Positions 20,511 to 48,445 of a stretch of DNA of 64,000 nucleotides are shown here, in pieces. The stretch comes from Schmidtea nova (Eukaryota), in assembly GCA_044892505.1 (NCBI GenBank), contig CM097883.1, positions 394,630,001 through 394,694,000 on the forward strand. Reading direction: 5' to 3'. Below the pieces are notes generated by a model, which saw only the letters and a program-made list of their open reading frames with translations, did not search any database and had not been told where the DNA came from. The number at the start of each line of letters is the position of its first letter. Position 1 is the stretch's first letter. Made by a program: the position numbers and the translations under genes.

Positions 20511-20538
20511 GGTATATATACCGCCATCAAAATGGCAG
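20511..20538 (+). promoter_or_regulatory. Putative LTR core promoter: TATA-like box plus paired YY1-type motifs
   Basis: GGTATATATACCGCCATCAAAATGGCAGA; conserved in diverged relics at 9703 and 17832 (minus) and repeated at 42927. Confidence 0.55.
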
Positions 20539-25158: not shown

Positions 25159-25623
25159 ACACTTCACATTTTTTTTTTATTGTGATTTTAGTAACAAATG
25201 TTATCATTTTATTATGAAATTATAAGTTTGTAATTGTTTTTTTTTGTATTTGATTGCATGGAGATAAAAGTAAATATAAAGATATTTGAATTAGTATTAA
25301 ACAAACCACCGTCGGCGAAAATGCTCAAATAAAAATCTCGTAATAAACATATACAGTGATAGAACAGATAAATTAAGGGGGACAAAAATGGGCAAGAAAC
25401 CTTCTATCGGTAGCCCTTGGACCCAGGAGATATTCGGTCAATCATAGTTTCGTATTGACGACGCTCACTGATTGCGAATACCCACCCACTTGTTACAGTA
25501 CCAACGTTACATAGTGACGGGTAACAAGGTGGTAATTTCAATGTTTTATGTGTTGAGTTGTTGATGAGAGCCATAGAAACGTCAAGGTCATATTGACGGT
25601 CAACAACCCACCATATAAAAATT

Positions 25624-25642
25624 TGGGGGCTCAGCCGGGATT
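25624..25642 (+). promoter_or_regulatory. Primer-binding site, tRNA-Pro-like
   Basis: TGGGGGCTCAGCCGGGATT matches the complement of the tRNA-Pro 3' end (TGGGGGCTCGTCCGGGATT) with 2 mismatches; lies 10 nt after the LTR end. Confidence 0.8.
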
Positions 25643-28158: not shown

Positions 28159-28641
28159 ATGGAATCGATTGAGCATATTCTACTACGAATCGAGTTGTTT
28201 TTCGATTTTAAAAATGACCCATTGCAGGTGTTGAGCGAGAAACTCGAACGAGTAAATGGAATAAAAGATGAATTATTGTTGAATCCTAGACCACAACCTG
28301 AGAACCTAATAGTGATTGCAGGAATTGTGGGAACAACAAACGATATTTCGTTGGAAACGATTTATGAATTACAACGATTGCGACTGAATAATCCGAATTT
28401 TAATCTGAATATACAAGAATGGATTGGTAAGATCGATAAAATTATGGACAAGCTAGAGAGATCGATAAATCAACAGATCGATTCATTCGAAAGATTTTAT
28501 ATTTGTCGACAAAAAGAAGCGAACATTTTGTTCATGCCATGTGGGCATTTGTGTTATTGCCAGCCGTGCTCTAGAGAAATAAAGCGATGCGTAATCTGCA
28601 AACAGACAATTGATGACAAAATCGTCGTATTCTGTTCGTAA
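28159..28641 (+). CDS. 160-aa protein with C-terminal IAP-type RING (first Cys replaced by Phe)
   Basis: FYICRQKEANILFMPCGHLCYCQPCSREIKRCVICKQTI; TTTTAG directly before the ATG. Confidence 0.85.
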   Translation: MESIEHILLRIELFFDFKNDPLQVLSEKLERVNGIKDELLLNPRPQPENLIVIAGIVGTTNDISLETIYELQRLRLNNPNFNLNIQEWIGKIDKIMDKLERSINQQIDSFERFYICRQKEANILFMPCGHLCYCQPCSREIKRCVICKQTIDDKIVVFCS

Positions 28642-29268: not shown

Positions 29269-31047
29269 TTGTTTGTGACTGATCATCACAACTTGCAGAA
29301 CGAGTCGACGCGATTATTTTACGATTTTAACTTAGGAGAAAGGGTCAAACCCGTAATGTTCGTCTTATACACCAGTTTACCAAGGCATGATTGGTACACT
29401 GAGGTAGGAGACAGTAATATTAATAAAGAGAAAGATGCTGCAGATTTTAGAAAGTCGAAAGAGTAGAAAGTGAACTTCGACGATTTTACCATGGTAATTA
29501 AGAAATGAATTCGTAATTGAGAAGTAGTAGAACAATTTGAGAAAAACCAGTCAGCAACAGCGAATTTATTTAAAAATTTGAGAATAGGGAAACGAGTGAT
29601 TGAATAGCATAAAGAGAACAATTGAAGACGGCCGAGATAATTGAGAGACTTTGAGAGTCCATTGAGAGACTTTGAGAGTCCATTGAGAGACTTTGATAGT
29701 CCATTGAGAGACTTTGATAGTCCATTGAGAGACTTTGATAGTCCATTGAGAGACTTTGATAGTCCATTGAGAGACTTTGAGAGTCCATTGAGAGACTTTG
29801 ATAGTCCATTGAGAGACTTTGAGAGTCCATTGAGAGACTTTGATAGTCCATTGAGAGACTTTGATAGTCCATTGAGAGACTTTGATAGTCCATTAAGAGA
29901 CTTTGAGAGTCCAGATAATTGAGCGCTCGGGGAGAGACTTTGAGAGTCCAGATAATTGAGAAACTTTGAGAGTTCATGTATGTGAGAGACTTTGAGAGTC
30001 CAATGTTTGCGAATATTGTTGAGAAATTTAGGAAAAATGTTTGAGAAATAGAATTAAATAAAACTGCAGTTATAATTTTGTCATGACAGAGAAAAACGTT
30101 GAACGCGAATACTCAAGGTGTATAAGAGCAGATAAAAGACATCGAGAAATACTTAGGAAATAAAATAATGGCCATGAATAGATAACGAACAAGACATTTT
30201 TTTTTACCTCGAATGCCGAGATGAATATGAAAACGAGTCGACAGGATCCTACTGTTATTATAGTATTAGTATAGTTATTATTATTGTTATTGTTATTATT
30301 ATTATTAGGGTATAGATAATTGATACGACCATATAGATAATTATTACGAGATATAGATAATTTAAAATCTGAGCTCAAAGTAAAAGGGGGGTAAATGGCG
30401 TCGATGAAGAAGCGATTTTTTTATTTAGATTGTCCAACAGATCAAAGCCAAGTCAAGAGACAGTCAAATCAATCAGTTATTGAAGAGGTATATATAGAAG
30501 AAAAGAAGAAAAAGAAGTCTAATTGAAAAGGAAAGAAGTAAAAGAAAATAAATCAAAGAAGATCCAATTGAAGATAAACGAGAGATCAGCAATCGATATT
30601 AAACGCAAATTGATAATACTACCAAACCAACCAAGTTCGTAAAGTCGAAAGATAAAGAGTCAAATCTATTAAAACGACGAAAGGAAATTACAAAGAAACA
30701 AAGCTGATAAATAAGGAAGTAAAATCCACAATATTTGAATGTTTGTAGCCGATTTTCAGAAAGAAATGGAAGAGAATCAGAAAGTGACCAGTGTAAACTC
30801 GGAAGATAATTTATTAAAAGAAGAGCAGAAAATAACCAGTCCAAAAGTAGAAGATAATTTGCAGGAAGAAGAAAAAGAAGTAGTAACAATGAATATGCAA
30901 CTGCAACAGAATATCGAAGGAAAGGTAAATGAAATGATAACCGAACTATCAGACGTTGAAATTGAAAGAAAGGGAAATGTATATGAATTTTCAGTAAAAG
31001 ATATGGAGGGAGAAGAAAAGAAGAAGTTTGTGGAGAAATATAACTGA
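29269..31047 (+). pseudogene. Decayed coding-like region at the gag position (fragmented by stops and repeats)
   Basis: Purine-rich plus-strand fragments (29269-29466, 30739-31047) broken by in-frame stops, upstream of the protease ORF; no diagnostic gag motif recognised. Confidence 0.35.
29641..30001 (+). repeat. 21-bp minisatellite (13 near-perfect plus about 3 degenerate copies), open as (RDF[D/E]SPL)n
   Basis: Unit GAGAGACTTTGA(T/G)AGTCCATT; no spacers. Confidence 0.96.
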
Positions 31048-31086
31048 AAAAGAAGAGAAAGAAGAAGCGATGATGACACATGTAGC

Positions 31087-33876
31087 ATGGACGAGAAATG
31101 GGATGAATCTACGACAATCAAATTAGAAGAAGTGGCACAAAGATTGTTAACAATTACCATGGAAGAAATGACGAAAATGGATCAAAAATCAGAAGAAAAG
31201 AGGAAATCAGCAAAGCTTGAAAGATCAAGACAAACAGAGATGTCAAAGACCGAACGATTAATCAGTAACCTAAGCAAGAGTGCAGGAAATCAATGTGAAA
31301 CAACAACTGAATTACTAAAATGGGTTATAAAAAATAGTGCAAATATATCAAATATGAGATTGATAGTGAAAGAAATTGAGAAATGCAGACATTTATGCCC
31401 TTGGTATTCAACACAAATTGATGACATCATGAGAAAATGGAAACAACTGGAACAAACAAATGATGATCCACAGATGTGCAGATTGAAAATTCAGTTTCCG
31501 AGTCTAGAAGAAATAAAGATGAATGTATCATTAACAACAAAGATCAAAGAGATAAAAGAGAGATTACCATTCAATTTACCATTTCACTTGAAATATGATG
31601 GAGAATCGCTGGATGATGATATAGAAATCGGTGTAACCCCGATACAAATCGAAACAAGTAATAAATTAACTGTTGATAAAATTGCAGGAAGCGAGTTAAC
31701 CAGAAAAGCGAGAGGTGAAGATAATCCCGAAACAACGATAATTGCAATGATGAAAACTCCAGCTGGACCAACACTTACAATTAACATCAAAGTTAATGAC
31801 GTAAAAGTAGACGCGATGATAGATACTGGCGCAAATATATCAGCAATAGATATCGATATGATACCAGAAATGTTACGGTTATGCATCGAGAAAACATCAG
31901 TAGACGTAATAACATGCAGCAAAGAATCTGTCAATATCGTTGGAAAGATATGGACAGACATCGAATACAGAAATGTAAAAATATCAACTTATTTGACAGT
32001 AATAAAACAACTGGGTGCCTCATGCATTATTGGAACAGACTTAATACCAAAACTGTTAAAAGGATCTGTAATTGATTTGAATACGATGAAGTTGAAACAC
32101 CAAATTGAAGAGAATTGCACAAGAGAAACAATGATAGAACAATCAAATCCAGAAACAACCAGAAAAGGACAAGTATATATGTTCCGAGAGAATAAAAATG
32201 ACGATTGGCTACATCGTATATTAACTGCGAGCAGAAAAGTAAATCAGCCAACAACAATATCTGAACAACCTAAGGTAGTTGACGATGTAAAAATGGAGCA
32301 CCGCAAAAAGATGGAATTGATCATAGAGATTACCAAAGAAATTATGCCAGAATGGTCAAAAAGTAAAAATCTATTCGAAATATTGGGAGGAGTAAGCTTA
32401 ATGGTTGAGGAATATGCCAAAGGAAATGAAACAACAGAAGCGATGAATACCATAAAAGAAAGATTACCAATATTATTTACAATTGCCAGTTTTAAAGATG
32501 AAATACCATTGTATCACGCAATAAAAAGTGGGAATGAACAGAGAATGTTTGAAATCATAAAACTCATGGAAAAGTGTAAACAACATACCAACACGAAAAA
32601 CTGGAAAGATCAAACACCCTTGATGATAGCAATTGAAAAAGGAGGATCCAAGAAACTCATAGCAGAACTGATGAGAACCGGATCAAGTTTTAAAGAAAGA
32701 GATGATAAAAATGAAACGGTGTTATCATATGCAGTGCAAGCAAATAACCATCAAATAATCAAATATATTATGTCAAATGCTACAGAAGAAGATATTGAAG
32801 TGCTCAGTTCAGATCCAAATCCATTAGTAAATGCAGTGAACAAAGATGCCGACGAAACAACAGCAAAAATGATTAAATGGTTACATCCAGTTACGCACGA
32901 AGGAGTGATAAATGTCAATGACAGATTTGAAGACGGTGAAAATATGATAATGAAAAGAGCCATGAAAAGAAAATGGAAAATGTGTAAAACGATTAAAGCA
33001 TTGCTGCAAAGACCTGATTTCAGATTTACAAACAACAAAAAAGAAAAAGAAAGAATTGGATCTAAAAGATATGATATATGTCAGCAAGTCATCATATGGA
33101 AAGAACATATAAAAGAAAGCAGAATTCACCGAAGCTGGAACAATGCCAAAGATGAGATAACCAAGAGAGCAAATATAAAAGCCGAAGCAGATGAAATAGC
33201 TAAAAGATATGAGGAAATAATAAAATTAATAAATGTCGAGGACGACATTTTAATCAGAACCGAGGGTGGTGCTGATGATCACAATGAGCCTGACGATGAA
33301 GATGAAGAGAATGATAACAACAAAACAAAGAAAGATGACAATGAAAGTACCAACAGAAACAATGACAAAGACGAGAAAGATGATGGAAAAAGCAATAACG
33401 ATGAAATTGGGAACAAAAGTGATGAACCCAAGCAAGAAACTTCAAATTATGAAAAACGAACAGCATGTCTACATAAAACTCGAATAAAAGACATAATATT
33501 GCTGATACTGATGCTGTCAACATTGAAAGGAACGGAAGCCGATGATAAAAGAAAACCAGTACAAGTATTAACATCAGGAGCAGATAATGAAGAAGCATGT
33601 TGGAGTAGCATCAATTTGCAAAGTAAAGGAGATAATCCAGTCAAAAGTCAACGAGCAGAAGGAGGAGAAATCCGAATAAATGGATTGAAGCGGGATGCAA
33701 AATACAAAATCTGGGTTTACAAAAGGAAAGCATCACAAGAAATGTTTAGAACACTCGTATGTCAGATAGTAACACATAATGGTTCAAAAGTCACCCAAGA
33801 AGACATAAAAGTCATATTAACCGACGAGCCAGATGAGAACATCAGGATGTCGTCGAAACGCAAGTTGTCAGAGTAA
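31087..33876 (+). CDS. 929-aa polyprotein: ubiquitin-like domain, retroviral aspartic protease, about 4 ankyrin repeats, acidic linker, internal signal-peptide-like segment, FN3-like tail
   Basis: UBL-like aa 130-202 (IKMNVSLTTKIKEIKERL...LKYDGESLDDD...KIAGS). Protease DAMIDTGANISAI (DTG at 31822) and CIIGTDL. ANK motifs LYHAIKSG, TPLMIAIEKG, TVLSYAVQAN, NPLVNAVNK. DIILLILMLSTLKGTEA, then IRINGLKRDAKYKIWVY. Confidence 0.85.
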   Translation: MDEKWDESTTIKLEEVAQRLLTITMEEMTKMDQKSEEKRKSAKLERSRQTEMSKTERLISNLSKSAGNQCETTTELLKWVIKNSANISNMRLIVKEIEKCRHLCPWYSTQIDDIMRKWKQLEQTNDDPQMCRLKIQFPSLEEIKMNVSLTTKIKEIKERLPFNLPFHLKYDGESLDDDIEIGVTPIQIETSNKLTVDKIAGSELTRKARGEDNPETTIIAMMKTPAGPTLTINIKVNDVKVDAMIDTGANISAIDIDMIPEMLRLCIEKTSVDVITCSKESVNIVGKIWTDIEYRNVKISTYLTVIKQLGASCIIGTDLIPKLLKGSVIDLNTMKLKHQIEENCTRETMIEQSNPETTRKGQVYMFRENKNDDWLHRILTASRKVNQPTTISEQPKVVDDVKMEHRKKMELIIEITKEIMPEWSKSKNLFEILGGVSLMVEEYAKGNETTEAMNTIKERLPILFTIASFKDEIPLYHAIKSGNEQRMFEIIKLMEKCKQHTNTKNWKDQTPLMIAIEKGGSKKLIAELMRTGSSFKERDDKNETVLSYAVQANNHQIIKYIMSNATEEDIEVLSSDPNPLVNAVNKDADETTAKMIKWLHPVTHEGVINVNDRFEDGENMIMKRAMKRKWKMCKTIKALLQRPDFRFTNNKKEKERIGSKRYDICQQVIIWKEHIKESRIHRSWNNAKDEITKRANIKAEADEIAKRYEEIIKLINVEDDILIRTEGGADDHNEPDDEDEENDNNKTKKDDNESTNRNNDKDEKDDGKSNNDEIGNKSDEPKQETSNYEKRTACLHKTRIKDIILLILMLSTLKGTEADDKRKPVQVLTSGADNEEACWSSINLQSKGDNPVKSQRAEGGEIRINGLKRDAKYKIWVYKRKASQEMFRTLVCQIVTHNGSKVTQEDIKVILTDEPDENIRMSSKRKLSE

Positions 33877-34026
33877 CCAGTGGAAGGAACAGTGTATATA
33901 GTGTATAAAATTATATTGTATTATAAAAGTAGAATATATTTGTATAATAAAAATTTAAAAATCCAAAAAATGAATACCTCAAAACTGGGAAAAACAAATG
34001 ATAATATTGTGTAATTATTGACAGAA

Positions 34027-34662
34027 ATGAATCCGAACAACGAGAATCAAAGTTATCAAACATCAGTTCCAACGTTCAATGAACCATCAAATCAAACTCA
34101 GTTTCCAGAAGATACCAATATACGAGAAAGAGAAGGGTCACTGCAAACCCCAGTAATCGAAAATGAAACGCAAAATCCAACAATTGACGAAAGAAACCTG
34201 ATATACCAAGTTGAAATTCCACTATTTGATGAAACCATGAACCCAATTCAAACGACATTCGTATTAAATCAACAACCAACAAATAGCCAGACTCAATCAA
34301 TATCAGCTCCGATGGTTTATCAGCAGACAATGACGCAAGAGTTATCATGGAAAACGCAATGTGAATTATTAAGCAGGATGTTGAATCAAGCCTATGCACA
34401 ATGGAAAAACGAACAAGCTTTGTTAACAGAAAGCGTAAACAGAAATTTATTATATCTTGCTAAAATGGAAGAACAACAACAAATGATAATCCAAAAGGAC
34501 CAGAGAATTGAATGGTTAACAAGACATACGGAGTGGCAAACAAACGAAATCAGAAGATTGAATGAGACGCGAGAAGAAGTTAGAGCATGGTATAACTGGT
34601 TAGACAATTTTCCAGAACCGGTTCGAGAACCTGACTCGACGGGAAGGGATGAACTATTATAA
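34027..34662 (+). CDS. 211-aa hypothetical protein (Q/N/T/P-rich N-terminus, coiled-coil C-terminus)
   Basis: Intact ORF; TTGACAG|AA precedes the ATG at 34027. Confidence 0.7.
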   Translation: MNPNNENQSYQTSVPTFNEPSNQTQFPEDTNIREREGSLQTPVIENETQNPTIDERNLIYQVEIPLFDETMNPIQTTFVLNQQPTNSQTQSISAPMVYQQTMTQELSWKTQCELLSRMLNQAYAQWKNEQALLTESVNRNLLYLAKMEEQQQMIIQKDQRIEWLTRHTEWQTNEIRRLNETREEVRAWYNWLDNFPEPVREPDSTGRDELL

Positions 34663-34702: not shown

Positions 34703-36160
34703 ATGAATAAAACTTGGTATAAAGAGCAAAACGAAAAAATTGTAAATTATTTTAGAATGCAGACCGAGAATCAGCAGAAACAAGAGGAATTGATCGAACT
34801 ATATCAGATACTACAGAGACAACGGATAGAACCAACAGAATTTCAAGAAAGATTTAAATGTAAAGTATGTAGAAATTTATTGATAGAACCCAGACAAACT
34901 GAATGTGGATGTCGAATATGCACTAATTGCGTGATGAAAATAATACGAACCAAACAGAAGCTATGTCCTGAATGTGGTGAAGCAATAATAGATCAATTTG
35001 ACCAAACCAGACCAGATATCGCAATGAATCGGGAAATAATGAACGCAGCAACAACCTGTCCAAATAAACCATGTGTATGGAGTGGGCCAATAAAATGGAT
35101 CGCCAAACACCTTTATAATTGTGATGATACGAAAGCCAAATGCAAGTGGTGTAAGGAAGAAATGTTGAAGAAAGTCAAAGACAGTCATGAGGAAATGTGT
35201 GAACAACGACAGGAAATATGTGAGTTTTGCAATGAAACAGACGCTTGGATAGTGTTAAAAGATGAGCATTGGAATATAGAAGAAGGGCAAGTATGTGACG
35301 AGTATGAAGGTAATTGTAATCAATGTGGAATGGCAGAAAACGTGAAGCTAAAAGAACATTGGGAAATATGCGAAAAGAAGCCTACTGCATGTCCACTAAA
35401 ATTATTCAACTGCAAAGTGAGATTACCAAAAGAGGAAATACAAAAGCATGTAGATGAAAATAGTGTAAATCATTTGAGAACCGTTGTGGAAGCTATTGGA
35501 GCAACCGCACTGGTAATTGGAGAAGCCAACACAGAAATAAAATCACACAAAATCATGATACAAGAGATGTTGGATACGAGAGGAAACTTTGAAAGAATAA
35601 GAGAACAAATGATCCAAAAAATGATACTATTAGACCAGAAAATAACAGAAATATCAACAATCCAACAAAGATTGGAAAGCATATTGCCAACAATGGAAGA
35701 ACTACCCGTCACACCCTACTATTGGAAAATCACAGAATTTACAGAGAAATTGAGACTAGCAAGAGAAGGAGGTCAACGTGTATGGACAAGTCCACCTTGT
35801 CACAGTTGGAAACATGGTTACAAGCTTAGATTCAAAGTATATCTAACGGGAGACGGACTAGGAGCCGGAACTCATTTATCTGTATATTTTCAAATATGTA
35901 AAGGAGATTATGACGATTGGTTGGAATGGCCCTACGATTGTGATATAACTATGATGATCGGAACAAAGGAAAACAACGTTCGGGAAGTATTCAGACCAAA
36001 CTTGAAGAAGGTAGAAGCAGCTTATAGGAAGCCGATCGAAAACTACAACGTAGCTGTAGGAAATCCACGTTTTATTGCATTACATTATTTAACCACAGAA
36101 CAATCATTATATTTGGTAAATAATATCCTGTATCTGATTATCGAAGTGAGGAAGCCGTAG
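34703..36160 (+). CDS. TRAF: Full-length intronless TRAF-family protein (RING, TRAF Zn fingers, coiled coil, MATH), TRAF2/3/5-like
   Basis: RING CKVC...ECGCRICTNC...CPEC; repeated Cx-Hx3C fingers; MATH YYWKITEF...GYKLRFKVYLTGDGLGAGTHLSVYFQICKGDYDDWLEWPY; 485 aa from the ATG at 34703. Confidence 0.95.
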   Translation: MNKTWYKEQNEKIVNYFRMQTENQQKQEELIELYQILQRQRIEPTEFQERFKCKVCRNLLIEPRQTECGCRICTNCVMKIIRTKQKLCPECGEAIIDQFDQTRPDIAMNREIMNAATTCPNKPCVWSGPIKWIAKHLYNCDDTKAKCKWCKEEMLKKVKDSHEEMCEQRQEICEFCNETDAWIVLKDEHWNIEEGQVCDEYEGNCNQCGMAENVKLKEHWEICEKKPTACPLKLFNCKVRLPKEEIQKHVDENSVNHLRTVVEAIGATALVIGEANTEIKSHKIMIQEMLDTRGNFERIREQMIQKMILLDQKITEISTIQQRLESILPTMEELPVTPYYWKITEFTEKLRLAREGGQRVWTSPPCHSWKHGYKLRFKVYLTGDGLGAGTHLSVYFQICKGDYDDWLEWPYDCDITMMIGTKENNVREVFRPNLKKVEAAYRKPIENYNVAVGNPRFIALHYLTTEQSLYLVNNILYLIIEVRKP

Positions 36161-36380
36161 CGAAGATGGAAAAAGTGTAAATATGTCTGTATTATAATGA
36201 AGTATCTGTATCATAATGTACAAAATAAAATTAAAAAATCACAAAAAACATAAAAATTAAAAAGAAATATAAAAATGAGAAAAACCAAAAAATCAAATAT
36301 AAAAATGAGAAAAATCAAAATTTTGTAAATATAGAAAACAAAAATTGTGAAAATATAACGGAGAAAATATTGTAGATACA

Positions 36381-37550
36381 ATGACTGAAAGGAAGATCGT
36401 GAAAATACGAGAAGATGACAGATCATTCAAAAGTTTATGCGAATTAATGAAAAGAGGTAAAGAAAAGATGTCAAAACCAATTACCTCAGAAATGATTCAT
36501 TGTCGATTTACACGAACAATATCGAATGTTCCTAAGGAAAGGAGTTATGGAAAATTCAAAATTATCGATGAAACGTTGAAAAATGAGAACCGAAGATATA
36601 TAACCTTTTTACAACAAGACAATTTCTATGAAAAGCAATACAGAAAATTCGCCAAAGATGGTTTGTATTTTGCAGGGACAATTGAGAAACCCGATAAAGT
36701 AACCTGTGTATTTTGCAGAATTGAAATAGAACCTTGGAGAATTAACGATGATCCACTTACAGAGCATAGAAAACTTTCACCCACATGCCAGTTTGTGTTA
36801 AAGGCATGCGAAAAACCAAGAAAACCAGCAACAATGAACCACGACGAAGAAGAAAAACCCAAAATAGTAACGATAACTTCAACAGGTCCAGCAAAGATAC
36901 GATTCATAGAAATTGATCCAAAATATACGATTAATGGGAGAACTGACACCTTTGCGGATAAAAAGATGGGTATCAGATTAGCAATAGAAGGTTTTTATGC
37001 AATAAATGAATCAACAGCTGAATGTTCAGAGTGTGGAATACAATATCAATTACCAAAAGAGGAAGGAGAATACCTGAAACACAACGAATATTGTAAATAT
37101 GGAGAAGAATTATATGAAGACGAAGAACCGATCAATTATAAAAACCCAGAGATGCCTGTTAATGAATTATTAGTAGATAAGATATTAGACGAACCACGAA
37201 CTCAAAAGGTAATGGAACGCACCGGCAAAAGCGAAATATTTGTGAAAGAAGTTGTCAGAGAGAGATTGAGAAGAAATGGAGAAACATTTGGATCAACCCT
37301 AGAATTTTTCAAAGCTATGATACAGTTCACCAGAAAATCCCAAGTTGTCAACCCAGAATCATGTATCAAGAAAGTTATATTAAATAAACACCCCTGTTCA
37401 ATTTGTTGGATAAAGAAAGTAGAAGTTATTCATTTACCGTGTGGACATCTGTTAGCATGTGAAAATTGTAGCAATAAATTGAGATTGTGCTCGATGTGCA
37501 GGAAACCGGTCGACAAACGGATCAAGGGATTCCGTTATGCCGACCAATAA
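36381..37550 (+). CDS. IAP: Intronless inhibitor-of-apoptosis protein (BIR, degenerate BIR, UBA-like, RING)
   Basis: BIR CVFCRIEIEPWRINDDPLTEHRKLSPTC (Cx2Cx16Hx6C); second BIR CSEC...HNEYC; UBA-like VMERTGKSEIFVKEVVRERLRRNGETFGST; RING CSIC...LPCGHLLACENC...CSMC. Confidence 0.94.
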   Translation: MTERKIVKIREDDRSFKSLCELMKRGKEKMSKPITSEMIHCRFTRTISNVPKERSYGKFKIIDETLKNENRRYITFLQQDNFYEKQYRKFAKDGLYFAGTIEKPDKVTCVFCRIEIEPWRINDDPLTEHRKLSPTCQFVLKACEKPRKPATMNHDEEEKPKIVTITSTGPAKIRFIEIDPKYTINGRTDTFADKKMGIRLAIEGFYAINESTAECSECGIQYQLPKEEGEYLKHNEYCKYGEELYEDEEPINYKNPEMPVNELLVDKILDEPRTQKVMERTGKSEIFVKEVVRERLRRNGETFGSTLEFFKAMIQFTRKSQVVNPESCIKKVILNKHPCSICWIKKVEVIHLPCGHLLACENCSNKLRLCSMCRKPVDKRIKGFRYADQ

Positions 37551-37684: not shown

Positions 37685-39232
37685 ATGAATATACAACAAT
37701 TGATAGACATCCTAGATCAGGAGATGGCCAAAAGACAAGAGCAACTAAATCAAATGAGAAATTATGAACAAAGAATGGAAGCCATCCAAGAGAACGTTAA
37801 AATGATTGAAAAACGAACCCAAGAGATCAATAAAATAAAAGAGGAAAATGAGGAACTGCGAAAGATAATAATCGACAAGGCGCATGTCGAAGCTGAACTA
37901 GAAAATTATAAACGAGAGTACAGGGAAATGGAGAGAAAACTCGAGCATGAACAACGAAAGTCGGTACCGTTGAAAAATCAAGCAAGATTGAGAAAAGATG
38001 AGCTCGAAACTTATAAAAGAGATACCGAAACAAGGTATGACAACTCCATAAGATTCTATCAGCAGCAACTCGAAAGTGAAAGAAACAGATATGAAGCCAT
38101 GAAAAAGAAATGGGAAAAGTGTCGAGATGAAGCATTTGTTTTGAGAGGACAACCTCAAAAGAAGCTTAAAGTCAGAACAAGAAACATTGAACCTGAAAGC
38201 GAACAAGAAAAGATCATTAGAAAAGTTAAAGCAGAGGCTAGGAAATGGAAACAAGAACACCAAGATTTGTTGGAAATGGCTCGACACAGAAAAATGCTAC
38301 AGGAAGAATTACTAAGACGGAGAGACGTTCAAATCGAGGCTCTGAAAGAGGAATGTCATTGGTATGCAGACATACGTCATGAGGAAACGGAGAAACTCAG
38401 AAAAGAAATATTCCAGTTGAAAACGAGCGGACAGTTCAGAGAAAGAAGCATAAAGCATCAAATAAAGTGGCTAATAGAACAAGCCAGAACATGGAAAAAG
38501 ACCTGGAAAAGAACTCGAGACGAACTACGAGAATTCCCCAAGAAGCTGATGTCAATAAATGAAGCAGAATTGTGGGAAAATGCAGAAAAGCAAGAGATAG
38601 AAAACAAAGAATTAAGACGGCAAATTCAATTAAAAACCGAATGGAATCAAAGGAGAATGAAATTTACCAGGAATCAAGAAGCTCGCATCAAATATCTGGA
38701 ATTCGAAAACAGGCAATATGACCAACAGAAGAATATGGATGATCGAAGTATTGAAGAACTGACAAGAGAATTGACTATTGCAAACCGTGAAGTCAACGGA
38801 TATCGAGGAACAAATACTCATAAAGACATTGTTATTCAACACCAGCGACGGCAGATAGAAGAAACAAAGGCCGAATGTGAGAAAGCGATCCAGCAATCGC
38901 AGTATGAAATTGAAATGGCTATCCAAAGTTTGGAAGAAAACCGCCAAAACTATGAAAGAGAGATTGAAAGATTGAAAAATATGGAAAATACGAGAGAGCT
39001 CGAGATAGAAAAAGAACAGCTGAGTGAAGAACTCGATTATATGACCTATTTGCTAGATGAAGAGATAGAAATCTCAAGAACTTTGCGAGAGAGAGTTCAG
39101 AGCCTACAAAATCAACCTCCAATCATTCTATGGCCACTATATCCAACACCAATACAACCTGTACATTTGGAGCCAGAAAATCCTCAAATCGAAGATGAAG
39201 GGTTCGGAGAAATTGAAGAGACGTTTGTATAA
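37685..39232 (+). CDS. 515-aa long coiled-coil protein of unknown function
   Basis: Intact E/K/R/Q-rich ORF with heptad character; TTTTCAG|A precedes the ATG. Confidence 0.8.
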   Translation: MNIQQLIDILDQEMAKRQEQLNQMRNYEQRMEAIQENVKMIEKRTQEINKIKEENEELRKIIIDKAHVEAELENYKREYREMERKLEHEQRKSVPLKNQARLRKDELETYKRDTETRYDNSIRFYQQQLESERNRYEAMKKKWEKCRDEAFVLRGQPQKKLKVRTRNIEPESEQEKIIRKVKAEARKWKQEHQDLLEMARHRKMLQEELLRRRDVQIEALKEECHWYADIRHEETEKLRKEIFQLKTSGQFRERSIKHQIKWLIEQARTWKKTWKRTRDELREFPKKLMSINEAELWENAEKQEIENKELRRQIQLKTEWNQRRMKFTRNQEARIKYLEFENRQYDQQKNMDDRSIEELTRELTIANREVNGYRGTNTHKDIVIQHQRRQIEETKAECEKAIQQSQYEIEMAIQSLEENRQNYEREIERLKNMENTRELEIEKEQLSEELDYMTYLLDEEIEISRTLRERVQSLQNQPPIILWPLYPTPIQPVHLEPENPQIEDEGFGEIEETFV

Positions 39233-39507: not shown

Positions 39508-40083
39508 ATGAGACTATTGAAGCAAAGATCAGAACCAGAACAACAAACGATATCAAAAGAAAGATTCAAAAAATGGAAAAGAGCAACAGAGCAATATTAT
39601 CAAGACCAAATAGACCAATTGAAGGAAGTAGTGAGCAAAGATAGAAAATATATCGCACAAATGGAGCAAGAGTGCGAGACGATGGAAATAATCAAGCGAG
39701 AAAATTATCTATTTCGCCAACAAAATGGTCTCACTCAAAAATATTGCGACAGACAGAAGCAAGAGATTGACAGACTCAAAAGGGAAATAAGCAGTGAACA
39801 GAACACTGTTAATAAAAGGAGAATTAAGATCGAGTCATTACAACGATCCTTGAAGAGCAAACAGAAAAAGATTATAAAAAGAGAGAAACAGATAATAAAG
39901 TTGAAAAGTGAAATCATAGAAGCAAAATTCGATACGTTCAAAGCAAAGAAAGTTGTAGAAATTAAAACGGCAGAAAACTACGTCCTCAAAGAGAAAAGGC
40001 GAAAAGAAGCAGACGAGATTGCAAAAATGGGTAACTGGAAGCCAGAAAGTCCGTTAAAGCTAAATGAAGAGACGAAAGAATAA
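39508..40083 (+). CDS. 191-aa basic coiled-coil protein
   Basis: Intact ORF; TTATAG|AAA precedes the ATG. Confidence 0.75.
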   Translation: MRLLKQRSEPEQQTISKERFKKWKRATEQYYQDQIDQLKEVVSKDRKYIAQMEQECETMEIIKRENYLFRQQNGLTQKYCDRQKQEIDRLKREISSEQNTVNKRRIKIESLQRSLKSKQKKIIKREKQIIKLKSEIIEAKFDTFKAKKVVEIKTAENYVLKEKRRKEADEIAKMGNWKPESPLKLNEETKE

Positions 40084-40178: not shown

Positions 40179-41003
40179 ATGAACAATCTAATGAGGATCA
40201 CAACAACCATCATGATATTTATAATTACAAACTGCCGAAGCGAAGAAGCATTGAGTCAATGTCAAGCAAGCCATCCATTTAGAAGATCCGATAGCATTTG
40301 CGTAAGCTATCAAGAAATTTGTATCAGCAGAAATGAGGAGTGTCAACAGATCCAACTACAATGTCAACAATGTCCTAAACCCAGAGAAGATTCAATCACC
40401 ATCCTTAAACAATTGAGAAATGAAACTCAACAATTAATCCAATTACAAATCTCCTTAACCAAAAGAAACAATCTTCAACTAAAGAAATAGCTCGAAAACC
40501 AATCATCCTTCAAACAGTTAACGACCGAACTAAAGAAATTGAGCAAGTTAATAGAAAAATCTCTAAATAATAAAGATGAAGTTAATGAGGAAAGATCAAG
40601 TTTCACAGAGGAGTTAAATCAAAAACTAAAAACTCAACTTCATCAAACCGAGAGAATTATAAAGCAATTGATATTACCCGAAAAGCAAAAGGAGATTATC
40701 CCTAAACAAGGATCAACCAACGAAGACGTCAGAGACCGAGAAGCAGCCATCACAGTCGTTCTACAAGGCATCAGTCTTTTCGCGGTCATAATGATCCTTA
40801 GCATGGTTGCATCAATCGGATTAGAGAAAATGAAATTAGAGAAAGCGAAAATCCAGCTGAATACCATCAAACGAATCACCCTTGAAGACAACAACCCGGC
40901 AAAAAATTTTCTAAGATCAGTATTTGAAGATCCAGTTCCAAGACATCCTAATCCTGAGACATCTACAACCTCGGTGCAGATGAATTACTTCTATAAACAA
41001 TAA
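40179..41003 (+). CDS. Type I membrane protein 1 (274 codons) interrupted by one in-frame TAG at 40488-40490
   Basis: Signal peptide MNNLMRITTTIMIFIITNCRS and Cys-rich/coiled ectodomain. ORF-track entries 40179-40490 and 40539-41003 share a frame with no other stop. TM helix AAITVVLQGISLFAVIMILSMVASIGL. Confidence 0.75.
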
Positions 41004-41205
41004 TACGATTCTATTCCCTTTTTGACAATTCATGTATTTTCTTCCAGTCATTCAACCTATCTATCTATTTGTATTCTCATCTTTAACAATATTTCATCAT
41101 CATTTAAATCATAACCCTGTGTAAAATCGTAACGCCCCTGTAAATAGCAAAAATTGTTTATCGTCATTATTCAATTTCTCTCTATTAGAAAAATAAAAAT
41201 CAACA

Positions 41206-42000
41206 ATGAAATCGTACCGAGAAGTTTTTCTAATCGCCATGATCACAACAATTTGTTGTCATCTTGAAGAGACCCGGAAATCAAGCCAATTAAACCCAAA
41301 TCAACCAGATAATAAAGAATCATTTGAAATCTCTAACAACAAACAACTATCCGAAAAGATCGAGCAAGCCAAAATCGAAATTCAAAATACCCTTTTCAAT
41401 CAAAATGATGAAATTTCAAGTCTAAAAAGAATAGCAAGGATAATATTAGCCGATTTAGCGATCAGAGATACATTCGAGGATATTTTTGATAATGATCGAG
41501 AAACCCGTGACGCAATAAAAAGTCTCACCAAAGAACTTAAAAGGAATGTAGGCAAGTTAATCGATCAGCTAACGATAAATTCATCAAGCCCGAAATGTCT
41601 GAAACAAATCCAGCAAATTCATCATAACCTGTCCCAGTAGATTTCCGAAGTAGGAAACCAAACGGCACAACAACTGAGAAAGGCTTATTTCGAGAACCTG
41701 GCATTTAAGAATAAAATCCACGATCACGTAAAAGAGATATCGAAACCGGATAACAATCAAGACAGAGACAAGTGCAGAGTATCCCTCCTATCATCCGAAC
41801 GAATTCTCGGGATCTGCCTGATCATCCTTAACTTTTTCTTAATAATCGGAATTTGTGGTATAATATGGTTAGGCTTGACCGCCACAAGAATAATGAACAA
41901 CATGACCTCCAAACAATCCCGAAGAGAAGATGACAAGAAACAGTTGATCAATTCCGAGTCATTCAAACTATTCCAGTCGAAGATCCAACCAATTCAATAA
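41206..42000 (+). CDS. Type I membrane protein 2 (264 codons) interrupted by one in-frame TAG at 41638-41640
   Basis: Signal peptide MKSYREVFLIAMITTICCHL. Manual translation past the TAG stays open for 119 codons to TAA at 41998-42000 and includes TM ILGICLIILNFFLIIGICGIIWLGL. Confidence 0.75.
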
Positions 42001-42332: not shown

Positions 42333-45300
42333 TGTTGGGCCAAAACGCAATTTGTTTTAATAAAACGATAACCCAATAGGTAGAGAACGCGCAAGATTCC
42401 ATTTTTAACCTTAGCTTCCATTAAAAATCCAACAATTAAGTGGAAAACACCAAAAGGTGAAGATGAATCAAAACACAGCAACCGGTAGAATGCGCGCTAA
42501 CTGCGAATTTATAAATATTTTCACTGAAATCTCGAGAAAAATTAAAAGCAGAATGTTTGGAAGCTAGAATAGGCAAAAAACCCATGGAAAGTGCCCATAA
42601 AGAACAGAATTTTATCATAAAACCTTCAGTACAGAAAAATTAACAAAATTTTAGAAGAAAATTGTGAATTTATCACAAAATTTCACATATAACAATAGAA
42701 AGAATTAATATGGATCGAAAATCATAAATTAAATCAAATCGAACAAATTTCGATTCAAACATAGAAATTTTGAATTAAAATAAATTATTTATAGTTTATA
42801 AAAAATTATTATACATAAATATGGAATTAATTTTCGGAAAATCATTAGAATTAATTTAGAAAAAATTAAGAGAAAATTCTAGAACAATTTGTTTTATTGC
42901 ACTACCGGAGATAGAGAAAATTTGATGGTATATATACCGCCATCAAAATGGCAGATTTCAGATTTTGTGGAAAAAATTTTTTTGTTTTGCTAGCTAAGAG
43001 AATTTGTGAGAAGTTTTCCGAAAATTTTTATTGCTAACCTAATTAAAGAGAATTTGTACCATTTGCCTCAGAAATTTAGAATTGAAGATATTGTTGAAAG
43101 GATTCAATTTATTGGAAAATCGGAATTGGTCAAAATTTAGTTCCCGGAGCACGAACCTTTTTAGTAGAAAACAAAATTTCTTCCTGGAGTTTGAAATGTT
43201 AGGTTTATTTTACTTTTGTTTTATTTTAAACTGATTCGAGGGGTATGGGATCGTCGGCAATCATGCCTGTCGATCATCCCATTCCTCACGTTCGTATTAT
43301 TTAAAAATGTATTATTTTTGTTATTTTATATAATGCAATTATTTTATTTTGATATTATTAAATATTAAAAATTTATTTTATTCAGTTTGATTTTGAAAAT
43401 ATTTTTGTTTATTATACTCACAAGTTCCCAAAACACCTAAAATTACTATGAGAATTGTCGAAATAAACTTATGAAATTAAATAAATTTTTTTTTATCTCC
43501 CATATCTTCTGACGATCCGTCCAGCCTTGGTTGTGCGGATCTGTTAGTAGCCTGGGTGGATCGTTGTCTGATTGGTAATCGGCCAGCCCATATTTCCACT
43601 TTAAGGTGAGGCTCATACATCCAAATTCTCGTCATCCCAACTGGGGAATCGTGGTTTGGCCAAGAGCAAGGTTTTGTTATACTAATGATTTGTATTATAA
43701 TAGAGTATCATATTTTTATTATCTACATAAGCAATTTCGTAATACAACATAATAATTTCTACCTCATGTCTTGAAATCTAAAATAGGAAATATTATTGAT
43801 TAAAAAGTCGACTCGTACTCACCTTCACCTTCACACTCTCAACAACGTTCATCTCATAAGAAAATGCAAGAAAAATGGATGCTGATGATGAAAAGAAAAT
43901 TGTTCGAAATAATGCTCAAGTCTAGAATAATGCTCATGAAGTGAAATAAATTGTGAAACAAGTATTGATTTAATCTGAATTAAAGCTCATTATGGTCTAA
44001 ATAAGTTTTCCTGTGAATCTTGTTTTTCGAGAGCCTGAAATTCCTAAGTGAAGTGTCCCGAAAAATTCGCGTACACTTTGATTGGGAAATTCATGCTCAA
44101 CAAAACCGAAATTTACTTTACTTGATATTAAAAACATTCGTTGAAAAATTTTATAACTTATTTTTATTTTTATCTTTATTTAGCATATAAATTTTTTTTT
44201 ATTATTGAATGCTTATTTAGATTTCGAAATTTATGGATAAAAATTTATTATCATTTCATTTGGATCAGAAATAAAAATTTACTTTTTATTATGTTGAAAA
44301 GATTTTATATGGAAAAAATTGTAAACCAAATTTGGTTCCTAATATTATTAATATATAAAAGATTTTATCATTTCATAAAATTCCCGAGAATTTGAAAATC
44401 AAAAGTTATATTAAACCCCATAAAATTTATAGATTGAAATTTTATTATTATATTAAAAAACTCTTATCATTTTATAAAAATACGAATTGGAAATTTTATA
44501 GAAAATTTTTTGGTTAATATATATTCTAAAATCTAAAAAGTTAAAAACCTATCTTATAAAAATTAAAAATTTTATCATTAGTAAATTTTTCATGAAACTA
44601 TAAATTAAAAAATTCATAAAAAGCATTATAAAACTTATTATTATTTTAATTTAAAATTATTATTATTTTAATTTAAAAATATTTTATATAGTGTACTTGA
44701 ATTATAATATAACCCCCCCACGATATCTTAAAAATAATGATACATCACTCATTGCAAGAAATCACACCCTTTACACTCAATAGCATCATCCATACTAATA
44801 CACCAGCAACATACATATAAAACACAATACACACATACACAGTGTCATTCAACAACATCCAACAATCACATACACACCAACAAACCATACCAAAAATTTC
44901 ACACAGCCATGCTAGTTAGAATCGTACGTCCAACCACACTCACAAGCACTCAATTGTTTTAAATCACTCATCATACAATCACACACAAACACAATAGTAA
45001 CAATAGAACACACAGTCATCATACTACACCTCATCCACCAATAAATCATTTATTCTCATCCAACAGTCAAGTCAACATACAGACACATATAATCACATAC
45101 AATCTCCTGTACTATCAATGAAAAATTCATAATAAACCTGTAAAAGTGTATCAACAATCAAACTCGAAATGATAGCATCCCACATCATACATAGACATGC
45201 ATACCTCCAAAAAGACAATGCCAAGGTTTCATCCCTTCAACCACCACAAAATACCATATTCATTTTACTATTTTTTTTTTATAAGTCGGAAACTTCTGGT

Positions 45301-48029
45301 AAAAATGAGAACCAACAACCAAAAAACGATATTTATTTTTAAATAAAATCAATAATAAACTATTAGTCTTTATTATAAAGTAAATTAAGCTTTCATATAA
45401 AATCAATAATCACGAACAATGGTTATTTTTATTATAAAGAGAATAAAAATCTTTTATCGATCAACGTTGCGCAAATACCGAGGAAAACTGATTGTTTGAG
45501 GAGTGAATGAGAAATCTCAAAATAAATTCCACTCAAAAACAGAAATTTGTGAAGAACTGTTAGAAGATTTCTTCGGAAAATGCTGGATCCTATTATTGAC
45601 AATCCTGTTCACTTGTATTCTCATGGCGCTGACCTTTATAACTTTAGTTGTTGAGAAGTGAACAGATGCTTTCTGAATTCCCGTGTTCAATTGGGAGGAT
45701 ATTGACATAATGTTTGAGCAATTCATTTAGATATATTCCGATAGAAATCAATAACTGATGCCTTGTAGGAAGATTCGTAAAGGTTTTATCAATTCAGATA
45801 TTCCTTTGGAACTAGATAACTCTATTGGCAGCTTAGGATTGACGTTGGGAGATAAGCACGCATAACATTGAAAATTCCAATAGACGTTTAAAATCCGACG
45901 AAAATTACATGTTGGAATAAAAATGTTGAATCGATGGAAGCACACTTTCTTTTGATGTAGAGAGAAGATTTCTGAGGTGATGAAGCGATCCCAGGGAGAA
46001 ATCCGAGTCCTGAGAATATATATGGTAAAGGAAGTGAAGAATAAAACTGAAAGTTTACCTGTAGAGACAACTGGATAGGAGAATTCTATTATTGAGTTCG
46101 ATATCTGCAAAAATCGATAATTATATAACATTAACATATTATAATGTAAACATTAACCAATCAGGTTGCGATATTTACCTGTTTAAAACAATGACCTGGA
46201 AAGTGATAATTGTTAAATAAATTTTTTTTTTGTTGCTTGCATGAAATGAGGAAATCCAGGAAGAAAATTTTAATATGACAGAATTATTTTTTGTAAGTCG
46301 TAAAATAGTCTTTACATGAGTAAATAAAACATCTAGGTCATCAAAGTTGTTTCAATTAGCTACATTGTAATCGATGTAGTTGTCAAGGCCGCGGAAAAGT
46401 TTTCAAAGAATGAAAATATAAAAATTTCAGTAAAATTATAAATGTTATTTTTCTAAGCAAGATAGACAATAGGATTTGAATTTTCGAAAACAAAATTTAA
46501 TTTAAAATCTGAAAATATAGGGATTTAACTAAAATCAATAGATAATAATTAAAATAAATATCTAGGTAGTTCATATCGATACCGTTGCTAATGCCTCGGC
46601 AAATTTTGGAAAAATTAAATAAAAATAAAAAAATTTAGAAAATTACAATTATGTTTCTGCAAGATAGACATTAGGAATAAGGAATAAGTGAGATATCGTT
46701 AAATTTATCGACATAGAAAATTACAAATTTAGGAGAATCTCGAAACTAATAATAAAAAGTTTAGTTAAAAATCATTAAAAATCCAATACCGTGAATAGAT
46801 GTGTTAATAAAATGGGTTACCCTTTTTGATTTCCCGGATTGAGAGTTGATAAGCATATCCGTGAAAAAACTCGCGATCAAATATGTGAGAACTCCTTAAC
46901 TTATTGCATTAATGAATGAACTAATTAATTTTTGTGTATGATGATAATTTAGTAAATATTATACGATAACCAATGTCTTAAATGTTCGAACTTTTCTAGC
47001 AATGAACCCAATGCAACAACTTGAAGAGATCCGGGCGTTATTGCTAGAAAACGCCAAGCACAACAAAAGGGTCGATGCACGGTTGGCCGAACTGGAAGCC
47101 AAGGGCGCATCCAACGTAGATGCCCTCCAGATAATGACCGGCCGCATGGAAAAATTCCGGGCCCGCTGTCGCGAGATGGAGGCGACATGGTCCGATGGGG
47201 AAACAGTGGAGAAGCTCAAGAAGCAAAATCAGATGCTGCTCCAGCAGGCAGCCGAGGACGCCATGCGATTGCGAGCATGTCGAGTTTCCATGCGGGAGCA
47301 GGAGCTCACCAATCAGAAGCTACAGGTAGATAGCGGTCTTATAACGGCCATTCTGCCAAAGCCCCAATTCCCACCTCACGAGCTGTTCCCGGTGAGGGTG
47401 GAGGAAGAGATAGCAGCAGCCGCGGCTCCAGTCAAACCAAAGCGATGGAGGCCCAGTAAAGGGGCAAGGGCCCGCAACAAGCGCCGGCAAGAAGCGCGAG
47501 TTTTGGGGCAATTGAGGGTCGAGGCCTCAAAAATTGGTAGTCTATCGATCGACCTGACGCAGGCACCCTTTTGAACACTTCACATTTTTTTTTTATTGTG
47601 ATTTTAGTAACAAATGTTATCATTTTATTATGAAATTATAAGTTTGTAATTGTTTTTTTTTGTATTTGATTGCATGGAGATAAAAGTAAATATAAAGATA
47701 TTTGAATTAGTATTAAACAAACCACCGTCGGCGAAAATGCTCAAATAAAAATCTCGTAATAAACATATACAGTGATAGAACAGATAAATTAAGGGGGACA
47801 AAAATGGGCAAGAAACCTTCTATCGGTAGCCCTTGGACCCAGGAGATATTCGGTCAATCATAGTTTCGTATTGACGACGCTCACTGATTGCGAATACCCA
47901 CCCACTTGTTACAGTACCAACGTTACATAGTGACGGGTAACAAGGTGGTAATTTCAATGTTTTATGTGTTGAGTTGTTGATGAGAGCCATAGAAACGTCA
48001 AGGTCATATTGACGGTCAACAACCCACCA
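42333..48029 (+). repeat. 3' LTR of giant element (5,697 bp)
   Basis: Copy of 19917-25613; followed by TSD CCTG. Confidence 0.96.
47002..47574 (+). CDS. Second copy of the LTR-encoded 190-aa protein
   Basis: Translation identical to 24586-25158. Confidence 0.75.
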   Translation: MNPMQQLEEIRALLLENAKHNKRVDARLAELEAKGASNVDALQIMTGRMEKFRARCREMEATWSDGETVEKLKKQNQMLLQQAAEDAMRLRACRVSMREQELTNQKLQVDSGLITAILPKPQFPPHELFPVRVEEEIAAAAAPVKPKRWRPSKGARARNKRRQEARVLGQLRVEASKIGSLSIDLTQAPF

Positions 48030-48445
48030 CCTGAGTGATTTTGTAATTCACACAATGGGACTACTGACAGTCTGTTCATATATACCTGCTAGCAAATAAT
48101 TTTAAAAATGCTTGTTTTTTGGTCATTACTACGAAATAGTTATAAGTGAGAAATGTAATTCAATTTATTAACACAACAAAATCTTAAATAAAAATCCGTG
48201 ACAATTTTCAAGCATTGAGCAAAAATTATCTACTCCTGATTTAAAGTGACTATTTTATGATCACACTGACCGATTGTTGGTTGATCCAAATGAATTCGTT
48301 TGTTTACGATCAATCTCTTAATTAAATTTTGTCAATTCATAGTTATTATTAAAATTTTGCTACAACCAAGAATTAATTAATAATAAAAAATTTTTGATAA
48401 AAGAAATTAACATAATTATCTTTTTTCACCTTTGATCTTTTTTTA

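Follow-up and report, generated by a model that had tools for sequence, protein, structure and literature searches.

A probable helper-dependent Burro-family LTR retroelement with whole TRAF and IAP genes in a triclad flatworm

The closest described systems are the Burro elements, namely Burro1/GYPSM1, Burro-2, Burro-3 and Burro-4 of Schmidtea mediterranea and a Burro-like element of Dugesia tigrina. According to a review (PMC6431247), they share the size class and the long LTRs with the element analysed here, and their cargo is of the same kind (RING, MATH/TRAF, BIR, ankyrin, SUMO-like and Smc-like). There, the published cargo appears as motifs, mostly inside the polyprotein, although in D. 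tigrina an accessory ORF further upstream contains the MATH, and an interference of the cargo, including TRAF and BIR, with apoptosis and ubiquitination is proposed (PMC6431247). In contrast, the family found in our window, i.e. the whole 64,000-nt stretch of DNA analysed, has a whole TRAF and a BIR-UBA-RING IAP as separate genes 3' of a pol remnant and is devoid of RT, integrase and env. Non-autonomous LTR elements of the LARD and TRIM type similarly keep LTRs, primer site, target duplications and the termini of a helper, with RT and integrase gone; unlike these, the window element has about eight coding genes under purifying selection in place of non-coding filler.

We consider it fairly likely that the window contains a helper-dependent Burro-family element with a constrained, modular row of genes including TRAF and IAP; the placement was set by size, LTRs and cargo descriptions. 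In the literature searched, with Grohme et al. 2018 and Jurka 2007 lying outside its scope, we found no whole TRAF and IAP genes, no non-autonomous Burro and no operon-like spacers. New is the occurrence of whole TRAF and IAP genes in a probably helper-dependent family with stereotyped spacers, such cargo having formerly been known as domains. Part of this may nevertheless be on record in Jurka 2007 or in Grohme et al. 2018, whose extended data and supplements may include TRAF and IAP ORFs of Burro-2/3/4. The presence of entire genes, the number of copies and the signal of selection make the published speculation on Burro and apoptosis testable.

The LTR element spans positions 19917-48029 of the window (28,113 bp), slightly below the approximately 30 kb of Burro elements, which have LTRs of several kb and occur in thousands of copies. 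Both LTRs (19917..25613 and 42333..48029, + strand, as are the features described below) are 5,697 bp long with no mismatch over their full length and have TG...CA termini; the element is flanked by the 4-bp target duplication CCTG, one copy of which follows the 3' LTR. The 5' LTR contains a 190-aa ORF (24586-25158) with no function assigned. A putative primer-binding site (25624..25641) starts 10 nt past the LTR and presumably resembles the 3' end of tRNA-Pro; its 18-mer is identical in the window element, an autonomous relative and a second element family (family B). No tRNA genes were found in the window, and contigs from four runs, uninformative on RNA, cover it in full. The first internal genes are an upstream accessory ORF of 160 aa with an IAP-type RING (28159..28641; Pfam PF13920, E 1.8e-12), which is 72% identical to its counterpart in the autonomous element, and an internally deleted polyprotein remnant with SUMO-like, aspartic protease and ankyrin parts (30739..33876), in which no gag core, env, RT, RNase H or integrase was found. 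A stop at 31045-31047 splits the remnant in the window copy; the frame is open there in four other copies. The SUMO-like match is weak (E 0.021), yet this part is homologous to the corresponding part of the helper polyprotein.

Downstream of the remnant lies a gene cassette. Its first ORF (211 aa, 34027..34662) matches no family but has a homologue in family B. It is followed by a full-length TRAF of 485 aa (34703..36160) and, after a spacer of 220 bp, by an IAP of 389 aa (36381..37550), both stop-free as the preliminary description had reported. A long coiled-coil-like ORF of 515 aa (37685..39232) is 29-30% identical to the ORF at the same position in family B and is probably what Burro publications list as 'Smc'; another coiled-coil-like ORF has 191 aa (39508..40083). 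Two ORFs judged by eye to be of signal-peptide/transmembrane type (40179..42000) are both split by stops in the window copy (40488-40490 and 41638-41640) and measure 274 and 264 aa in copy L094. No Pfam match to a BCL2-like motif was obtained in the window ORFs or the helper. The TRAF-IAP pair thus sits between identical LTRs with a target duplication and is dispersed in high copy number, as expected of the retroelement cargo that it had been taken for; dispersed copies between LTRs rule out a single-copy syntenic host gene pair. Taken together, the window element is rather likely to be non-autonomous, to belong to the Burro family of LTR retroelements in a triclad flatworm and to have inserted very recently.

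RT, RNase H, integrase and env are absent from the window element. None of 20 BIR-anchored copies, 16 of them spanning the protease-ankyrin junction, contained RT, RNase H or integrase, a count that rests on BIR-ranked copies, and none was present in four further copies fetched. Because these genes are absent from the window family, we filed it as a non-autonomous derivative and not as an autonomous Burro. RT-bearing autonomous relatives (L081-L084 and L136/L137) are present. The autonomous relative has the order gag-MATH-SUMO-env-PR-RT-RH-IN-ankyrin in a polyprotein approximately 5,000 aa long, the same as published Burro. All 150 scored matches of the helper RT showed 100% identity, many within frames of 4,990-5,010 aa, and a fusion glycoprotein of viral type (PF24664, E 1.6e-70) is among the helper's products. 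The LTR ends of the window element are 95-97% identical to those of the autonomous Burro1-like element; the two elements agree in their termini, in the primer site and in the 43 nt that lead up to the 3' LTR, and 4-bp target duplications were seen in the window copy, in two other copies and in the helper. Since LTR ends and primer site are shared with an active Burro1-like element, the RT-less window family is probably mobilised in trans by such a helper, whose proteins would package and reverse-transcribe its RNA.

The family comprises at least 1,079 IAP copies, in at least 861 of which the end of TRAF adjoins. Among 20 systematically sampled copies, TRAF and IAP were adjacent in all, one with half the TRAF, and both genes were intact in seven (TRAF in 8, IAP in 13). 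The preliminary description had proposed to examine selection across copies, and the ratios were not near 1: for shared variants, pN/pS was 0.25 for TRAF and 0.31 for IAP in the 49 best-matching copies, and 0.25 (p 1e-8) and 0.34 (p 2e-7), respectively, in the 20 systematically picked copies. Two duplicate rows (L090 of L002, L093 of L004) and two host loci (L055, L057) were omitted from the best-match sets. Shared TRAF and IAP variants were enriched at third codon positions, and shared stop-forming variants among the 20 systematic copies numbered one in TRAF and two in IAP. These data support that TRAF and IAP are under purifying selection in a transposing lineage. Selection is not special to these two genes, as the protease-ankyrin remnant shows a similar constraint (pN/pS 0.40, 20 systematic copies). 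For trans-acting cargo, the reason for selection on single copies is not obvious, and the constraint could derive from an RT-bearing parent of the window family that our sample missed.

A related explanation holds that the cassette is a passenger from an autonomous parent, selected there, while RT-less copies amplify for their cis-signals and their cargo decays. At least one of the two genes is broken in 13 of the 20 systematic copies, singleton IAP variants are nearer neutral (pN/pS 0.65-0.89), and family B has an RT-bearing form (L136/L137) as well as an RT-less form, both with the TRAF cassette, all of which would fit. However, any element should decay once it has inserted, RT is absent from the window and from 20 fetched junction-spanning copies, and the fused remnant has diverged from the helper (65% identity in the protease part, 39% in the ankyrin part) yet remains open in most copies and constrained. 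We regard the passenger explanation as quite unlikely and retain the reading of a helper-dependent element with a constrained gene row.

Pfam detected the MATH domain of TRAF (E 8.7e-23), whereas its RING and zf-TRAF scored under the curated cut-offs; PDB matches of the ORF comprised TRAF RING/zinc-finger chains and MATH chains. The coiled coil was read from the sequence and from an alignment to TRAF1. For the IAP, Pfam matched BIR (E 3.8e-16) and RING (E 8.6e-11). The first BIR covers approximately aa 61-142, a degenerate BIR aa 186-245, the UBA aa 262-330 and the C3HC4 RING aa 339-373. The preliminary description had read the protein as BIR-BIR-UBA-RING; first BIR and RING stand by Pfam and the UBA by fold, whereas the second BIR is degenerate, retaining the GFY, CxxC, H and C ligand pattern in shortened form, and gave no Pfam BIR match at E 10. 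The UBA was not detected by sequence methods. The fold model of aa 262-330 placed cIAP1 (3t6p) first among 48,161 chains (Z 7.9, rmsd 3.6, 66 aligned) and the XIAP UBA (2kna) second (Z 5.5); with Z below 8 and a low-confidence single-sequence model, this is moderate evidence in itself for a UBA preceding the RING. The single-sequence folds were poor (pLDDT 36.9 and 30.4), the UBA part alone being usable. By sequence, the protein is an IAP of the XIAP/DIAP type, with one or more BIRs and a RING at its C-terminus. The four zinc ligands of BIR1 were kept in 53/53 loci and the RING ligands in 50-51 of 51, the RING being the most constrained part of the IAP (shared variants N 2, S 11). Word-index homologue searches gave no match for TRAF or IAP; a BIR profile found three proteins.

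The preliminary description had further suggested that the element co-captured a physical E3 complex of the TRAF2-cIAP kind that keeps stem or germ cells alive. A TRAF-IAP partnership exists in vertebrates and flies, and the cIAP1/2 layout consists of three BIRs plus a CARD. The vertebrate TRAF2-cIAP1/2 complex (PDB 3m0a) combines the same two protein classes, and UBA and RING of the element IAP are closest to cIAP1 and XIAP. The close adjacency of the two constrained genes in at least 861 places and in 20/20 systematic copies would agree with co-capture, as would the BIR1 scores on cIAP1/2 BIR1 chains (37.4 and 36.5 bits), nearly equal to the score on DIAP1 BIR1 (39.3 bits), a BIR of the caspase/IBM-binding class. 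Yet the TRAF/MATH proteins of three element families form a single clade (support 99/97 in one tree and 100 in another), and no BIR was shown in the two other families. An AU test rejected a grouping of the element TRAFs with fish TRAF2 (p 2.6e-5) in an 18-row quick tree; the TRAF trees are quick trees in which the element rows are long-branched and of unusual composition. The coiled coil had no match to that of TRAF2 in the PDB even at E 10, although coiled coils diverge fast. The element TRAF thus appears to belong to a triclad radiation and not to be a TRAF2 orthologue, and its presence on these elements seems to predate the TRAF-IAP pairing. A sister TRAF, P0002, is 40% identical. Unlike cIAP1/2, the IAP retains a single intact BIR, and its 389 aa gave no match to a CARD. 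Adjacency needs no complex, because unrelated neighbouring cassette genes are as tightly linked and as constrained as TRAF and IAP. A complex prediction with three TRAF coiled-coil/MATH chains and BIR1, run without alignments, scored 0.02 and counts neither way. Co-capture of TRAF2-cIAP partners, which the TRAF phylogeny and the IAP layout do not support, is therefore unlikely. Under the preferred explanation, TRAF would have been captured first, in an ancestor common to several Burro families; only the window lineage would have gained or kept the IAP module.

The TRAF-IAP spacer (36161..36380) contains UGUA at 15 and 27 nt past the TRAF stop and an AAUAAA, and an acceptor-like TTNYAG lies 5 nt upstream of the IAP ATG. 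All 12 same-strand spacers examined were 40-275 bp long; in 11 of them, 14-20 nt separated the stop from the first UGUA, and a YAG was found at most 22 nt upstream of the next ATG, again in 11. The exact TTNYAG occurred in only six of the 12 acceptors, that of TRAF being the weakest and 26 nt away. UGUA was observed 52 times in the spacers versus 21.4 expected (reached by 0/3,000 dinucleotide shuffles), and its density was 31/kb versus 5.0/kb in the 200 nt behind 10 host frames; these figures come from spacers that in part share a common ancestry and from motif windows picked after the data had been seen. The gene row is modular: an extra LamG/EGF-type gene of 482 aa, whole or partial, sits at one spacer in 5/20 copies, and the family B cassette has the same neighbours with the IAP missing.

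In the available parts of the literature, the genes of flatworm operons are separated by no more than 300 bp and preceded by UUNYAG acceptors (PMC12582326), and spliced-leader operons likewise combine same-strand genes with YAG acceptor-like sites near the ATG (PMC12582326, PMC8629364); a positioned UGUA pair was not found in these parts. Unlike such operons, the cassette is part of an LTR element, and the full-length RNA of that element has to avoid being processed in this way. The stereotyped spacers suggest operon-like mRNA processing, in which the splice acceptor just before the ATG would give a separate mRNA for each cassette gene. Trans-splicing of a spliced leader, with 3' ends formed close to the UGUA pair, has, in our estimation, just short of an even chance; cis-splicing from a 5' leader is a serious alternative, itself somewhat below even. 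Should the spacers act as their sequence suggests, we would be dealing with an LTR element that expresses a series of separate genes via operon-type RNA processing, of which the literature searched gave no description.

As to function, TRAF and IAP may be ubiquitin ligases or adaptors that blunt stress, JNK and caspase-driven death where Burro elements are active. They probably act on the same pathway, a direct complex between them being somewhat unlikely. Baculovirus and entomopoxvirus IAPs likewise are captured BIR-BIR-RING anti-death genes on a genetic parasite; unlike these, the element IAP has a UBA, a degenerate second BIR and an adjacent TRAF, and its carrier is an integrated retroelement. 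An anti-death role of the TRAF/IAP cargo, an idea already published for Burro cargo, is plausible. Two observations in the available parts of a report on S. mediterranea count against this explanation: it is chiefly in differentiated cells that BURRO1 becomes de-repressed, and the smedwi-2 phenotype was the same with BURRO1 RNAi (PMC8532177). Alternatively, TRAF and IAP could serve the element cycle, e.g. by ubiquitin-dependent assembly, budding or degradation of restriction factors, and not cell survival. Among the further products of the element are a stand-alone RING, a SUMO-like domain and proteins of membrane type, the helper has its fusion glycoprotein, and the RING is the part of the IAP under strongest constraint; but BIR1 keeps all zinc ligands and resembles DIAP1 BIR1, and the baculovirus IAPs are a precedent for an anti-death function, so that a role confined to the element cycle is decidedly unlikely. 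A wider reading of the helper-dependent element is rather improbable: it would be a satellite of an env-bearing retroelement that dropped its replication genes, persists by carrying host-control genes (TRAF, IAP, RING and surface proteins) as a modular operon on the host spliced-leader machinery, and may repay its BIR-less helper with an anti-death function.

The host, too, has several TRAFs, dispersed or in tandem, that consist of one open frame of 448-476 aa. The lack of introns is therefore not diagnostic, and retro-capture was rejected as a conclusion from it. Host TRAF tandem arrays on C2 fall into clades separate from the element TRAFs and appear to have expanded independently of the element. 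The earlier proposal that element copies account for part of the host TRAF/IAP expansion thus does not extend to these arrays, although BIR scans are indeed swamped by element copies. A search with a host BIR exon matched only itself and element copies. Such copies can dominate the number of TRAF/IAP genes counted in planarians, the targets of RNAi and the expression measured; in a six-frame BIR scan, 28 of the 30 best loci were element copies and two were host loci.

The TRAF and IAP genes lie within an LTR element at positions 19917-48029, whose two LTRs (5,697 bp each, TG...CA ends) differ by 0 mismatches and which is flanked by a CCTG target duplication. Its internal region runs from a RING ORF through a SUMO-like/protease/ankyrin ORF to a 3' row of separate genes, termed cassette here, with a 211-aa ORF, TRAF, IAP, two coiled-coil-like ORFs and two membrane-type ORFs. 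No gag core, env, reverse transcriptase (RT), RNase H or integrase was detected in this element. The architecture agrees with Burro, and a non-autonomous Burro derivative, rather than a TRAF2-cIAP pair, is the most fitting classification. Each LTR also contains a 190-aa ORF of no family (24586-25158 and 47002-47574), with a homologue (64%) at locus L139, and the leader carries tandem arrays of 21- and 26-bp units (29640-30002), which are longer in several other copies.

The TRAF/IAP feature of the preliminary description is real. Two stop-free ORFs were found, TRAF at 34703-36160 (485 aa) and IAP at 36381-37550 (389 aa), separated by 220 bp. In TRAF, Pfam identified a MATH domain (E 8.7e-23), and the structural-database matches were solved RING, zinc-finger and MATH chains of TRAF proteins. 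The BIR-BIR-UBA-RING layout proposed for IAP was recovered in part: one clear first BIR and a C3HC4 RING are present, but the second BIR is degenerate and shortened, and sequence searches of IAP detected no UBA. A language-model search with IAP returned BIR-RING clusters in all 8 rows listed. A UBA is supported by fold, as the modelled region retrieved cIAP1 at rank 1 (Z 7.9) and the XIAP UBA at rank 2 (Z 5.5) among 48,161 chains.

Exact-pattern counts gave at least 1,079 IAP copies across the 1.25-Gb genome (G000) and a TRAF end at the expected distance from IAP in 861 places. TRAF itself matched 797 times when up to one mismatch was allowed; control patterns gave 0 matches. All 40 scored DNA matches (1,372 candidates) were at least 99% identical. 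The LTR pairs of other copies showed 99.9% identity in two and 94.5% in one, and a fourth was interrupted by another insertion. RT, RNase H and integrase were found in 0 of 20 BIR-anchored copies of this family, searched over 10 kb upstream each; 16 of these cross the junction where such domains would lie and four are chimeric or truncated. One copy retains gag-like pieces (L105:3025-5329), suggesting stepwise deletion in this family.

An autonomous Burro1-like element (loci L081-L084; G000:C1:97568812-97597984, 97.57-97.60 Mb) encodes gag, MATH, a viral fusion glycoprotein, protease, RT, RNase H, integrase and ankyrin in one frame of 4,706 aa. The window element has termini, primer site and pre-LTR sequence in common with this autonomous element, which is likely the helper of the window family. 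All 150 scored matches of its RT were 100% identical, i.e. at least 150 copies exist. A BIR search of this element gave no match. Besides the fusion glycoprotein, which is in-frame, this element has a fibronectin-III domain near the end. A second family, B (L085-L087, L136-L139), has a full TRAF in its 3' row with neighbours homologous to the window cassette and no IAP; it occurs with RT (L136/L137) and without (L085-L087). Many dispersed 476-aa TRAF frames probably belong to family B (three examined).

In a carefully built MATH-domain tree (71 rows), the helper polyprotein, family B and the window family together with its sister TRAF protein P0002 form a single clade (support 99/97), and quick trees of full-length TRAFs concur (support 100 and 99). 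This clade is placed among triclad TRAFs, with those of Dendrocoelum and Dugesia as the nearest named ones; long branches and odd composition qualify these placements. Taken with the Burro-type architecture, these nearest TRAFs suggest that the genome is that of a triclad flatworm. Because all element sequences form one clade, TRAF was on the elements before the families split. The trees suggest that IAP was gained or retained by one element family, in which TRAF would be the older cargo. Co-capture of two TRAF2-cIAP-type partners is thus not borne out, since TRAF predates its pairing with IAP and a grouping of element TRAFs with fish TRAF2 was rejected (AU p 2.6e-5).

Cassette modules come and go, as an extra 482-aa gene, whose spacer is of the type seen elsewhere in the row, is present, whole or partial, in five of 20 sampled copies (L104:5591-7039; also L102, L103, L107, L116; insertion point 33885-33947 of the window); IAP can therefore occupy one family and not another. 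In the encoded protein, EGF-like and LamG-like parts occur together with a signal peptide and a transmembrane segment; it is neurexin/crumbs-like, with a high atlas score.

Being intronless proves nothing, as several host TRAFs are single-frame genes too (L125-L131, L134, L140; 368-476 aa), and debris of Burro LTRs flanks some of these. Element copies had been proposed to explain part of the host TRAF/IAP expansion; for TRAF this has to be narrowed, since the host tandem arrays on contig C2 (400-455 Mb) are a real, separate expansion with clades of their own. Among the best 30 BIR loci, 28 were element IAPs with TRAF upstream and two were host exons, namely L057 (C2:446.67 Mb) and L055 (C1:500.27 Mb). 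L057 combines a BIR with a helical region, lies in the TRAF-rich part of C2 and has a close relative, P0158; L055 is presumably BIRC6-like.

To assess selection, every copy was set site by site against the window copy, and variants were divided into singleton and shared ones. In the 49 best-matching copies shared pN/pS was 0.25 for TRAF and 0.31 for IAP, and singleton pN/pS 0.53 and 0.89. A systematic sample of 20 copies (every fifth among the first 100 places listed, all on C1) gave shared values of 0.25 and 0.34. A dN/dS near 1, named in the preliminary description as a refuting result, did not appear; broken copies are nonetheless common. TRAF was found in all 20 systematic copies (one half-length) and was intact in eight, IAP was intact in 13 and both in seven; frameshifts in some copies may be assembly errors. 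Constraint extends to the protease-ankyrin remnant (shared pN/pS 0.40) and other cassette genes (0.23-0.31).

The 12 spacers compared (window family, one variant and family B) are stereotyped and 40-275 bp long. A first UGUA, a motif that can serve as a CFIm or Pumilio site, lies 14-20 nt past the stop in 11 of 12, with a second usually near 25-28 nt. UGUA was observed 52 times versus 21.4 expected and UGUAHAUA 15 times versus 1.2, with 0 of 3,000 shuffles as high in either case; DNA behind ten host frames had UGUA at background only. YAG precedes the next ATG by at most 22 nt in 11/12 spacers and by at most 12 nt in 9/12. The acceptor ahead of IAP is conserved in 69/69 loci (some being one copy fetched twice), that ahead of the 515-aa ORF in 32/46 by a strict pattern. 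Flatworm operons are described with UUNYAG acceptors and spacers of up to 300 bp in the accessible parts of PMC12582326 and PMC8629364. Operon-like expression of the cassette is only a lead, because the spacers are partly related, motif thresholds were post hoc and support is at the DNA level.

The cargo theme is already known: the accessible text of PMC6431247 lists RING, Smc, MATH_TRAF, BIR, ankyrin, SUMO-like, BCL2-like and env motifs for Burro and proposes interference with apoptosis and ubiquitination. By analogy, the TRAF/IAP cargo might work like a virus-borne anti-death kit. In the portions available, PMC6109357 reports MATH expansion with no retroelement link, PMC7586133 treats host TRAFs in cell survival with 0 occurrences of 'transpos' and 'IAP', PMC8532177 finds that BURRO1 is de-repressed in differentiated cells and that RNAi against it brings no rescue, and PMC11410931 mentions Burro once. 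New here are the whole genes, the selection signal, the operon-like spacers and the probable dependence of roughly one thousand copies on a helper; figures or supplements of Grohme et al. 2018 and Jurka 2007 may bear on this novelty.

Elsewhere in the window, two broken ordinary gypsy-type elements (3426-7799 and 13462-15500) still carry fragments of protease, RT, RNase H and integrase, and old LTR remnants (9098-9758 and 17830-18112) share about 70% identity with the beginning of the element LTR. Host-like coding sequences comprise a WD40 repeat ORF (722-1318, minus strand) and a C4 zinc-finger exon of nuclear-receptor type (55461-55949, minus strand). MITE-like short inverted-repeat elements lie at 48440-48630, 49152-49477 and 53461-53768.
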